Origin: a virus
Taxonomy: Duplodnaviria; Heunggongvirae; Uroviricota; Caudoviricetes
Direction: 5' to 3' (one strand)
Virus record (IMG/VR): IMGVR_UViG_2869953405_000008
Coordinates: 1-21,533 of that record
DNA length: 21,533 nucleotides
The position numbers were made by a program. Below are positions 18,001-21,533 of this stretch, one piece after another. Position 1 is the stretch's first letter. Every line of letters begins with the position of its first letter.

Positions 18001-21000
18001 ATCGCCAATGGTGTAAAAGCCAATTTTTTTCGGTGATGGATGAGGTGTACTGGCAATAGCGGACACTACCATTTGTTCTTTTTTTAAGCAGCCATCTGAT
18101 GATATTTTTCCCTGAAGGCTGCCGGGGAGATATTCCCCAGACGAGAGTGACGACGCTGACGATTGTAGAAAATCTCAATGTATTCCCGTATTACTGAGAT
18201 GGCTTCATCCCGGTTATTAAAACGATAGTGGCTCAGGCTCTCATTTTTCAGCGTTCCCCAGAAGCTTTCCATCGGAGCGTTGTCGTAACAGTTACCTTTA
18301 CGCGACATTGATGTTTTCAGACCAGACTGCTCCTGTATGACCCGGTAATCGTATGCGCAGTACTGTGAACCTCGATCAGAGTGGTGGATTAGCCCGGCAG
18401 GTGGGCGCTGGCTCCTGAGCGCCATAAACAGGGCTTTACCTGTCAGCTCTTTTGTCATGCGCTCTCCCATGGCGTAGCCGACAATTTCGCACGTATAAAC
18501 ATCTTTGATGCCAGCGAGGTACAACCATCCCTCCTGTGTGGCAACATACGTCAGGTCCGCCACCCAGACCTGATTTGGTGCTGTAGGAGCGAACGTCTGG
18601 TTCAGCAGATTTGGCGCAACTGGCAGATTGTGGTTCGAGTTCGTAGTCGCTCTGAACTTGCGTTTCTGCTTACAGCGTAGCCTTAGCTCCTTACGAAGAC
18701 GTGCCAGTCGGTCACGACCAACGATGATGCCATTCTCTGCCAGCTCCGTCTGGAGCCGCCGGGTTCCATATGTTTCGCGAGTGCGGATATGTGCCACCTT
18801 AATCTCCAGTTTTAGCCGCTCATCACTTTGTTTTCTGTCTGAGGGTTCATGCTGTACCCAGTTGTAATAACCGCTCCTGGATACACCAAATACCTGACAC
18901 ATCGCTTCAATGGGAAATTGTTGTCGCCATTGTTCGATTAACGCGTATTTTTCAGCGACTCCTGTGCAAAATACGCTGTTGCTTTTTTTAATATATCTCG
19001 CTCAAGGCGAGCTTCATTTAACGCCTTACGCAGTTGCAGAATTTCAGATTCCAGTTCAGCCACCGTGCGGGAACCAGGAGTACCGAGCCCTTTTCTGGCG
19101 GCGGTAACCCATTGTCCTAAAGTGCCTTCAGGAAGAGATAATCGGGAAGCGCCTTCACTGATCGAAAGTTGATTTTCAGGAACCGTTCTGACAGCTTCGG
19201 CTTTGAACTCTTTAGAGTAACGTTGGGTTTTTCTGCTCATTATTAGCTCCTTCTGATGCCATTCTATTTCAGGAAGGAGTGTCCGTTAAACTCAGGCTAC
19301 CTCACTAATCAGCTTAGCCAGTCTTGATTTCAGCAAATTAATCTCATTTTCTCTTGCTTTCATCAGTTTCTCTTTGGCAATTTCTTCAAGCTCAGCTTGT
19401 GATTTATCAGCAACAATTAGAGACAGTCGATGTGGTGCTCTGACAGCTCTTTCTGTACGAACAACTCTTTGACCTTCTGGTAAATCTGCAATCACTTTAC
19501 CAATCTCTACAGGGTCATACCCCCAACCGTCACGGTCTAGTCGAGAGAAATAAGCATAAGAATTGGTTTGAAGCTCCATCGAAATAACCATTTCGTCAAT
19601 TTCGTCTTCAAGCTTGGACTGAATTTTCTCGTAAACACTTCTCATTGCTTCTTGAGAGTCTTTAATAGCTTGGAAATATCGGCGTTGTAGCTTCAACTTC
19701 AAATCAAGTTCACACCGTTCGTTCATAGAAAAATCAATTTCAACTCTTGGAATCTCGAGTGGTTCTGGTGGAATATATGGACCTTTATTTACTTCGTGTG
19801 ATTCCCGCCAAGCTCTATCAAAAGATTCACGCAAAGTTAATTCGTGAATATCAAGTGCACTTGGTCTGTGTTCGATAAGCATTTCATGTTCATTTCTAAT
19901 CATTCGTTCACCCCTTAGTTTATTTGTTATTTCAATTTATAGAAGCACACTCAGCAATCAGAGGTGAAGAGTCTGACTGAACAAGAACCTGCCAAGTGTG
20001 CTTTTAAAAACTGAAAAAGCCCTAAACATTTCTGTGAAGGGCAAAGGATTCAATAATGAATGAACAAGAGTACTTTTTGAGATAGCCTCTCAGACTAACC
20101 TGAAAGGCCATGACGAAAAGCATTGCACCTTTCCAACTCAGAATATCCATCCATCGGATTATTGAAAGAAAAATAAGAGAGAATTGCTCTCCCATAATTA
20201 AAATTATGCCATGCTTAAGGTTATTTGTCAACAGCTTTTTAACAGGTTGATAACATCAATTCTTATTTACCGCATTGTTAATAATACAACCAACAAATAA
20301 GCCAAGCAACGTCCAAGCAATTATTAAACCCATTAGTGAACCCTCACAGAATCCGTCACCAGAATATTATCACTGTACAGGATTGTCACAGCACCTTTCA
20401 AAAATTGCTCTGGGGAAATACTGTATATGTTCGTTTGCTCGATAACCAATCTTTTCATGTTGCTGTCTGTAATTGGTAGCATCATTCGAGGCTCGTTAAA
20501 CTCCACCGACTGAATAAAGTCAGAGATGTTTTCTACATTATCAGCCATCAGCTTTAGTAATTTATCAAAATTAATTGCGATACCTGCATCAATGAAGCTT
20601 TGCACCATCATAGCAGTGTCGTTATCAACCATAATTTGCATTGGGTAATTATTCATTTTTAAATCTCCTATGAAACACACCTCAGACCTCTTAAAATAGC
20701 CATTCTGAGGCCAGTAACCATGCGGGTTACAGAGGGAGTTGCACTGGCTGGTAAGGTAATTTATCAAATTAAGGTGCAACTCTGCCTGTAAAGTGCATTC
20801 TACCGTTTCTTAGATGGTTATTTTTAATTGTCTTTATTAATCAATGGCTTAATGTAGAAATACTGTCTCCGTGAAATACCATATTTTTCTGTAATGTATC
20901 GCTGAGATTGACCAGCATTTATGGCCTGAGTGATATCATCACGGTTATAGCGGTTACCACGGGATTTATATTTGTCACCATCCACATCTTCTGAGGTATT

Positions 21001-21533
21001 GAAGTCTTCAATCAGCTTAATTGCATCGTGAAGGTCATCTTCTGAGGCATAATCGAAGGTATGGATAATCTCAAAATCACCAGTATCTGCTGGTGCATTC
21101 TTCCATCTGGAGAAGCGGGATTTTAATTGCTGGTGTGTGAAGGGTTCAGCATTACGAGTTAAATCTTTCCATGTTCCGTTATTCTCACGGACAAGGTGAC
21201 CTCTATGGCGATAAAACGCATGATAATCAAATGTGCATAGCATTAAACCCCCAGCTTATCCGCCAGTTGATGAACCTTGGCACTCAACACCTGAATCATT
21301 GAGCAACCTGCCACTGCGGACTGTGCTTTGAGTAGTTCCAGTTGGCCCGTTGTGATTCTGATGGCCTTAGAACCCTCTGCAACGCCCTTGATAGCGTCAA
21401 ACGGTGTAAGGGCTATGTGTTCCTTCAAAATCTCACCAACAAGTGCTGTGTGGCTCATGGCTGGGTATTTGTCTTTGATTGCTGCCAGTCTGGAATATGC
21501 CTCTGGCAAAAGGCGTGTAACTGTGTGTCTCAT

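Follow-up and report, generated by a model that had tools for sequence, protein, structure and literature searches.

The window analysed here is a stretch of 21,533 nucleotides from a tailed virus (Caudoviricetes; IMG/VR record IMGVR_UViG_2869953405_000008, positions 1 to 21,533), the last 2.2 kb of which (positions 19305-21533, hereafter the block) encode four orphan proteins, designated A to D, next to the third copy of the insertion sequence (IS) IS600. An earlier note, made from the sequence alone, had proposed that this block is a moron of the adjoining lambdoid prophage, possibly with a defence or anti-defence role. Comparison with intact relatives instead indicates, with high confidence, that the block represents the IS600-cut central 2.2 kb of a separate integrative element of ~10.7 kb, and that it is not prophage cargo. 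It is furthermore proposed, with somewhat better than even confidence, that the block is an IS-cut fragment of a satellite or antagonist of virulent Ounavirinae (Felix O1-like) phages, which would resemble the so-called PLEs (elements similar to phage-inducible chromosomal islands) of Vibrio cholerae.

Evidence for such an element comes from the genomic contexts of its relatives. A Megablast search located block-like DNA in 469 of 5,426 complete E. coli genomes, and all of the relatives inspected, i.e., those of E. coli, Citrobacter, Salmonella and S. sonnei as well as those on Enterobacteriaceae contigs, were found to reside in an element of 10.7-11.5 kb, while none of these contexts was a lambdoid prophage. 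The gene order is identical in more than twelve independent loci: a gene for a small serine recombinase is followed by the replication gene rep, a 96-aa gene, gene A, a slot occupied by gene B, gene C, a short peptide gene and a structured RNA, after which a second half comprises gene D, a 71-aa gene, and genes for a tape measure protein (PF20155), a Dit-like protein (PF21821) and a large serine recombinase (PF00239, PF07508, PF13408), the latter representing the integrase. The Rep protein matches HTH_36 and the PHROG annotated as ‘replication initiation O-like’, while no capsid, terminase or lysis domain was detected in any annotated gene of the E. coli element L001. The earlier note had suggested a comparison with intact homologues so as to recover the missing 3' end of D and its original neighbours, and both were obtained in this way, the full-length D protein being 234 residues long and its neighbours being genes of this mobile element.

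The element was found either within yecE or between tonB and yciI. The Salmonella element, of 10,717 bp, interrupts yecE, while that of another locus measures 11,470 bp. Insertion into yecE is precise, the left junction falling at one and the same nucleotide in Salmonella and S. sonnei, and the ends of the element in these relatives bear inverted TAAATACAC, as expected of the attP of a serine integrase. The E. coli variant located between tonB and yciI encodes a different integrase, with ~34% identity to the yecE type, so that two integrase types correspond to two sites. Synonymous divergence between the window and the E. coli copies amounts to 0.37-0.48, which indicates separate lineages of a mobile family rather than one inherited remnant. 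The features by which satellites are commonly recognized were thus observed in the relatives, i.e., an integrase with attachment sites, a discrete unit, an initiator of its own and the lack of a capsid, packaging or lysis gene set. The end of the window coincides with the start codon of gene A, and the promoter of this gene, rep, the small recombinase gene and the left attachment site therefore lie outside it.

The opposite end of the block is defined by IS600 copy 3 (18041-19304, minus strand; 1,264 bp and identical to copies 1 and 2), whose flanks, GGA and CTA, lack the 3-bp target-site duplication. To the left of this copy are located genes for DUF968, RusA, antiterminator Q, a DNA methylase, a NanS-like esterase, a P21-type holin and DUF1327, representing the nin-Q-lysis region of a lambdoid phage. 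Six complete S. sonnei genomes (L011-L016) match positions 18041-21533 of the window with 100% identity and then diverge, and the difference between these genomes and positions 1-18040 of the window indicates that the source strain possesses a different IS600-mediated arrangement. The absence of a target-site duplication and the differing far flank identify the junction as a recombination joint, and the lambdoid genes are thus not the native neighbours of D. Furthermore, the truncated gene D (19292-19903, minus strand; 203 aa, of which the native part at 19305-19903 covers 199 of 234 residues) follows its 234-aa homologues up to the residues AKLIS and then continues with EVA and a stop codon contributed by the IS600 terminus, with the loss of 31 codons, which corroborates the previous suggestion that the 3' end of D was replaced by the IS. 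These data show that an IS600 insertion cut the element within D in a Shigella lineage, most likely one of S. sonnei, and that recombination at the IS joined the fragment to an unrelated lambdoid prophage. The annotation of this region is thereby corrected, as the block is a dead fragment linked to a prophage by IS600. A simple inversion between IS600 copies 1 and 3 was considered and rejected, as their flanks are not the reverse complements that such an event would have produced. It was also observed that, in the six S. sonnei genomes, a fragment of a NanS-like (DUF1737) gene lies in opposite orientation beyond the same IS600.

The four consecutive minus-strand genes described in the earlier note were found where it had placed them, and the low GC content, which it had judged by eye, was substantiated by computation. 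The block has a GC content of 39.7% (38.2% without gene A), while the remainder of the window outside the IS copies has 48.6%; in a scan with windows of 2,229 bp the block ranked lowest, the minimum elsewhere being 42.4% (mean 48.8, standard deviation 3.0). Gene A by itself has 49.5% and the block is consequently not AT-rich throughout. The GC content of the whole element is 39.2%, that of the Ounavirinae phage fragments 35-40% and that of the chromosomal flanks 48-50%, and the composition shared by element and phages explains the low GC content of the block. Between variants of the element, the ratio of nonsynonymous to synonymous substitution rates (dN/dS) is 0.18 for A, 0.29 for C, 0.15 for D and 0.18 for the short peptide gene, and the values of 0.15-0.29, indicative of purifying selection, identify A, C and D as real genes. 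Shine-Dalgarno-like sequences are present upstream of B, C and D, in line with the good ribosome-binding sites reported before, but that of gene A falls outside the window.

None of the proteins A to D returned a match above threshold in Pfam, PHROGs, NCBIfam or PADLOC, in agreement with the previous statement that they belong to no nameable family, and a Megablast search with the block against phage records returned no match. The four proteins are not ordinary lambdoid early-region or nin proteins, whereas matches to such proteins would have spoken against a horizontally acquired island, and both the horizontal acquisition of the block and its damage by the IS are supported. The PADLOC search was likewise negative for the 71-aa and 96-aa open reading frames (ORFs), the tape measure protein, Dit and the integrase, while Rep gave weak helix-turn-helix (HTH) matches only, to CRISPR-associated regulators such as CasR and Csa3. 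A defence or anti-defence function, as suggested earlier, is therefore plausible only insofar as satellites defend their hosts, and receives no PADLOC match for A to D. Two features had escaped the earlier note, i.e., a 25-aa gene at 20256-20333 and a promoter with a structured RNA in the 429-bp spacer between C and D.

The link to the Ounavirinae is provided primarily by the two tail proteins. The Dit-like protein exhibits 69-74% identity, across 98% of its length, to the product of a gene of Suspvirus, Mooglevirus and Felixounavirus (78% for the L004 variant), and this phage gene stands directly downstream of that for the tape measure protein. The tape measure protein of the element in turn shows 27-30% identity along its length to the tape measure of Ounavirinae, and when all element proteins were compared by blastp with the tail module of phage SUSP2, these two were matched and the others were not. 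When element DNA of 6.5 kb, extending from D to the right end, was used as the query of a sensitive blastn search, only 22 of 50,697 phage records were matched; the 20 listed records all represent phages of Ounavirinae size (86-93 kb) that infect E. coli, Salmonella and Shigella, with wV8 and Silverhawkium among the named members. These matches connect three separate noncoding segments of the element to unannotated phage DNA. One such segment, which aligns to a divergent intergenic region of Silverhawkium, holds repeated CTTAAAAG motifs, which form clusters in unannotated stretches of 1.6 kb in Felixounavirus genomes as well. The hosts of the element (Escherichia, Shigella, Citrobacter and Salmonella) overlap those of the Ounavirinae. 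Among the 50,697 phage records, tblastn searches with B and D returned no match, and Rep produced a weak match to one Parageobacillus phage and to no other. As further observations, CTTAAAAG/CTTTTAAG repeats occur in noncoding DNA of the element close to rep (L001, 19101-19207) and in unannotated DNA of Ounavirinae (L025, 3001-3131; L024, 716-1593; L026, 3478-4008), while the terminator that follows the small recombinase gene of the element is identical to a phage terminator at 32 of 33 positions.

The chance that the element is a satellite may be put at about even. In the mechanism proposed for such a satellite, the serine recombinase would integrate the element and its own initiator would replicate it, while its own tape measure protein and Dit-like hub would replace or poison the corresponding helper proteins during tail assembly. 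Protein A, as a tandem ribbon-helix-helix (RHH) protein, and protein B, with its putative HTH, would act as DNA-binding regulators, while C and the 25-aa membrane peptide would be conserved effectors. A strong constitutive promoter would drive a structured RNA that stops at a terminator shortly before D, and the D-tape measure-Dit operon would be expressed only upon read-through or processing of this transcript.

A number of points weigh against this interpretation. The S. sonnei locus has a split replication gene, and the 3' end of D, the tape measure gene, the Dit gene and the integrase gene are absent beyond the IS, which implies that the copy in the window cannot act as a satellite; it is a defective remnant that could express at most A, B, C, the peptide and the RNA. 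For the family as a whole, satellite behaviour, i.e., excision, replication, packaging, transfer and an effect on phages, is deduced from sequences. Neither a circular contig nor one limited to the element was encountered, the IMG/VR matches being longer contigs with flanks, and no packaging signal was identified in the element. Proteins A to D exhibit no similarity to the protein families of PLEs, phage-inducible chromosomal islands (PICIs) and P4 that were at hand, PLEs being compared by description only. The roles proposed for B, C, D and the peptide are guesses from gene position and carry low confidence, and the noncoding motifs shared with the phages could be origins, promoters or operators, or equally chance-enriched AT-rich words. 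Finally, a comparison of the structured RNA with 62 translation start regions of SUSP2 by duplexfold, a crude method, revealed no outlier. A literature search retrieved no paper on a satellite of Felixounavirus or Ounavirinae.

The alternative that survives best, although it is considered unlikely, is that the element is a decayed cryptic prophage that preserves the early region and two tail genes of a temperate phage with a serine integrase, A to D having once been early genes of this phage. The tail genes are genuine (TMP_3 and Dit_like), the initiator is O-like and the integrase is of a phage type; moreover, IMG/VR pipelines call such regions viral, and yecE is listed among the genes disrupted by prophages (PMC3603311). 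Random decay, however, should leave differing remnants, whereas the same intact set of 10.7-11.5 kb, under purifying selection, is present at no fewer than three integration sites in four genera, with a synonymous divergence between copies that exceeds 1. Furthermore, longer relatives were not seen, the 50,697 phage records contain no meaningful match to B, D or Rep, and the relatives of the tail genes are virulent rather than temperate phages.

Less likely again is a second alternative, which takes the element to be an anti-phage island of the chromosome, without transfer of its own in phage particles; its divergent tape measure and near-identical Dit-like protein would serve as dominant-negative decoys against Ounavirinae tails, with A to D as regulators and accessory factors. 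Interference with tail assembly is an established form of defence (PMC11364771; PMC10884400; for Rta, PMC12987554), the 69-78% identity of the Dit-like protein would suffice for co-assembly with phage parts, and the lack of both packaging genes and a packaging signal is compatible with this proposal. The initiator, the integrase with its attP-like ends, and the occurrence at several sites and in several genera nevertheless point to an element that moves and amplifies, and the PADLOC results offer no match. This alternative also overlaps with the satellite reading, as satellites defend their hosts too.

The proposal from which this analysis started, i.e., that the block is a moron of a lambdoid prophage with a possible defence or anti-defence role, has become highly improbable. 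It drew on the position of the block beside nin-Q-lysis genes on the same strand, on its low GC content and on its orphan proteins. This adjacency was, however, created by an IS600 copy without target duplication, past which other S. sonnei genomes carry different DNA, while on its other side the block runs on into the yecE-integrated element. Its relatives all belong to this serine-recombinase element, no relative was found in a lambdoid prophage, and no PHROG match was obtained.

Gene A (21243-21533, minus strand), the first gene of the A-B-C-peptide operon, encodes a protein of 96 aa with a pI of 9.5. Sequence and profile searches returned no Pfam match, and a search of the PDB with the profile produced noise only. 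The AlphaFold2 model, obtained from an alignment of 25 sequences (pLDDT 84.8, pTM 0.76), exhibits a beta-alpha-alpha arrangement that occurs twice, and the two halves of the sequence each retain a motif, HT(V/L)TR and IRIT, respectively. The top Foldseek matches of this model are chains E, F and G of F-plasmid relaxosome structures (probability 0.95-0.98, TM 0.5-0.6), with a sequence identity of 14-18% and E-values of ~0.03, followed by matches to DndE, single-chain Arc and Arc. The relaxosome chains are presumed here to be TraY, a name that the structure entries do not give. The model thus identifies A as a single-chain tandem RHH protein of the MetJ/Arc superfamily, with predicted DNA binding, which sharpens the RHH-like assignment of the earlier note. 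Similar to TraY of the F plasmid, A possesses a single-chain double RHH architecture; it differs in being located outside a conjugation context.

A promoter for gene A, TTGACA-17-TAAAGT, is observed just past position 21533 in S. sonnei (L012, ~9650-9711), where it overlaps three TGTT...A repeats with a spacing of 11 nt, with a hairpin upstream. These three repeats are a plausible candidate for the operator of the RHH protein. In a subfamily of A with a length of 92 aa, by contrast, translation of the gene is coupled to that of an ORF upstream.

Gene B (20824-21243, minus strand) encodes a protein of 139 aa with an orphan N-terminal domain, and it is translationally coupled to A, its start codon overlapping the stop codon of A in the sequence TAATG; both its length and this overlap are as given in the earlier note. 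For the Fis/NinH-like C-terminal HTH that had been proposed for this protein, weak matches only were obtained, namely to HTH_28 at residues 106-127 (E=0.12, below the cut-off) and, in a comparison of the profile with PDB sequences that otherwise returned noise, to the HTH of gamma-delta resolvase (E=1.4). The C-terminus may represent an HTH of the Hin/resolvase type. The B slot is variable, as B has 56% identity in L004 and is replaced by unrelated ORFs of 66-90 aa in Citrobacter and Salmonella. The B proteins of the Shigella and E. coli copies (L001-L003) are 98% identical, while their neighbours A and C show 78-89%, which indicates recent recombination of the B slot.

Gene C (20333-20656, minus strand; ATG at 20656, with AGGAG 9 nt upstream) encodes 107 aa with a pI of 4.3, confirming the acidic protein described previously. 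It is present in every variant of the element, with 66-82% identity across variants. An exhaustive HMMER search of 1.84 billion representative proteins returned 18 matches, mostly fragments, and revealed no distant family. The unannotated gene for a hydrophobic 25-aa peptide (MGLIIAWTLLGLFVGCIINNAVNKN; 20256-20333, minus strand) has an ATG that overlaps the stop codon of C, again as TAATG. This peptide occurs in all variants, including that of Salmonella, with a constant length and stop position and with 60-100% identity.

The spacer between C and D contains a sigma-70 promoter (20203-20231, minus strand) of the form TTGACA-17 nt-(TGg)CATAAT, which matches the consensus at 11 of 12 positions in a promoter scan; its position is fixed, and 17 of 18 variants retain an intact -35 hexamer. 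It precedes a candidate structured RNA or leader of ~186 nt (20011-20196, minus strand; both ends predicted), for which the following elements, all on the minus strand, could be delineated: a 5' stem-loop at 20176-20193 according to fold prediction, an invariant motif GTGCAATGCTT at 20118-20128 that is conserved between variants, a second stem-loop of 12 bp at 20082-20111 that is supported by covariation, and a predicted intrinsic terminator at 20014-20042. These elements fold alike in every variant, while an insert of 0-150 nt differs between variants. In stem-loop 2, which was realigned alone before pairs were counted, 99.2% of cells are paired and compensatory double changes are found in 5 of 12 pairs; these values were reached by none of 500 shuffles, and slid controls did not exceed 51% pairing. 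RNAalifold, applied to the raw MAFFT alignment, missed this stem-loop because of misalignment. A further long stem, with a core of 14 bp or more (19943-20003, minus strand), follows the terminator and precedes the ribosome-binding site of D; within this stem, 100% of cells are paired in nine distinct variants and 3 of 14 pairs are compensatory (slid controls ≤52%). It may represent a processing or regulatory hairpin in the 5' untranslated region (UTR) of D.

A search of Rfam 15 with the spacer RNA returned, as its best match, a plant miRNA model with E=0.09, far below the gathering score, and scanning IMG/VR for exact 14-mers that match the RNA motif yielded chance matches only. It is proposed that the RNA acts in trans as a small RNA or, alternatively, serves as a leader that controls the D-tape measure-Dit operon through termination. 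The RNA motif could pair over 9 nt with the 5' UTR of C (TTGCACCTT), but this complementarity was discarded as a candidate interaction, as it is absent in the L004, L006, L007, L008 and L027 variants. A type I toxin-antitoxin module composed of the peptide and the RNA next to it, which the small, conserved, membrane-like peptide beside a strongly promoted small RNA might evoke, carries next to no probability, as the RNA shares the orientation of the peptide gene, downstream of which it is transcribed, rather than being antisense to it, and as the duplex energies of RNA and peptide mRNA equal those of shuffled controls in six variants.

For protein D, AlphaFold2 (alignment of 14 sequences) predicts a mostly helical fold with two long helices, which fits the coiled coil suggested before, but the confidence of this model is low (pLDDT 57.5). 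Comparison of D with the tail chaperones of SUSP2 (two proteins) revealed no similarity by blastp and an hhalign probability of ~1% or less. In a scan of one genome per species, E. albertii was the single match of gene D. The protein of 235 aa that occupies the position of D in Salmonella (L027, 11724-12431) was observed to have ~26% identity to E. coli D, suggesting that the D family is wider than the word-indexed search (40 clusters) had indicated.

Further observations were made on the relatives of the element. In E. coli 730V1 (L002, 14694-15662; 17381-18043), an IS903B copy is located between A and the upstream 96-aa gene, and a gene for a Dam-family methyltransferase lies beside the small recombinase gene both in this strain and in S. 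sonnei (L012, 7185-7847). In the Citrobacter loci L007 and L009, a 213-aa gene stands beside the Dit gene in one and, in opposite orientation, beside the large recombinase gene in the other, which hints that the attachment point differs or that a segment close to the invertase-like small recombinase can invert.

Elsewhere in the window, IS600 copy 1 (5685-6948) is flanked by AAT and GTT and is thus without a target-site duplication, which probably identifies another rearrangement joint, while copy 2 (10412-11675), with its clean GGA/GGA target duplication, is a simple insertion. Copy 2 is flanked by a direct repeat of 88 nt with 82% identity (10252-10339 and 11986-12073), which starts with GCCCCTCCGC.CAGGGGG and may be a duplicated lambdoid regulatory or terminator segment. 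Just to the left of copy 1, an inverted repeat of 159 nt is found that is 71% complementary (4305-4463 and 5236-5394).

Felix O1-like phages are the classic typing phages of Salmonella and are common in therapeutic and biocontrol cocktails directed against E. coli, Salmonella and Shigella. If the element does hijack or block their tails, major pathogens would possess in it a widespread yet unrecognized determinant of their phage resistance and of gene transfer. The element would also provide a second, independent example of chimeric tails, so far demonstrated only for the PLEs of Vibrio, in a tractable host, while the new covariation-supported RNA, the 25-aa membrane peptide and three orphan proteins would serve as handles on the sensing and subversion of virulent phages.

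Among known systems, satellite P4 possesses an immunity in which the CI RNA, derived from the leader, causes premature termination of transcription. The element resembles P4 in that a constitutive promoter, a structured RNA and a terminator precede the later satellite genes. It differs in that its RNA has no sequence or Rfam similarity and no internal target repeats were identified, in that its control by termination is hypothetical, and in that no Pfam or PHROG match in the element corresponds to psu, delta, sid, the alpha primase or a tyrosine integrase. A resemblance to Tai, Tab and Rta, i.e., the formation of tailless particles, would apply if the tail proteins of the element or D interfere with helper tails; those systems are single small proteins without homology to structural proteins, and the element exhibits neither similarity nor a PADLOC match to them. 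The PICIs and capsid-forming PICIs (cf-PICIs) of E. coli and other Enterobacteria are likewise small integrative islands with regulator and replication modules and phage-derived morphogenesis genes, and putative tmp genes are reported for some cf-PICIs (Extended Data Fig. 10, PMC12987554). PICIs, however, have temperate helpers and encode packaging or capsid genes along with a tyrosine integrase, AlpA and a primase-replicase. In the element the integrase is a serine recombinase and the initiator is O-like, and domains of AlpA, primase, terminase or capsid proteins were not detected. The mycobacterial EPIP satellites combine a tape measure gene with a serine integrase (PMC12822802).

The closest parallel is offered by the PLEs, which are serine-recombinase satellites of the virulent myophage ICP1 in Vibrio cholerae (PMC12987554). 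Their tape measure protein, tail chaperone and baseplate hub are 20, 20 and 41% identical to those of ICP1 and give rise to chimeric tails, a conserved small RNA binds tail transcripts of the helper, and one PLE encodes an 80-aa blocker of tail assembly (PMC12987554). The element is smaller than a PLE (~10.7 kb compared to ~18 kb), resides in Enterobacteriaceae and has Ounavirinae as its presumed helpers; it is also without a recognized tail chaperone, as the 71-aa ORF and D are unlike phage chaperones. Furthermore, induction, chimeric tails and defence have been demonstrated for PLEs, whereas the element is known as sequence. That such elements constitute undescribed enterobacterial satellites, the counterpart of PLEs, which would combine chimeric tails with control by a new RNA and a TraY-like RHH protein and would protect their hosts from Ounavirinae, is put forward tentatively, at slightly less than an even chance. 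The two systems nevertheless have in common a large serine recombinase, an initiator of their own, a majority of orphan genes, a conserved small RNA and a tie to a virulent myophage, and in both of them identity to the phage is unequal between tape measure and hub, amounting to 20% and 41% in PLE11 and to ~28% and ~75% in the element.

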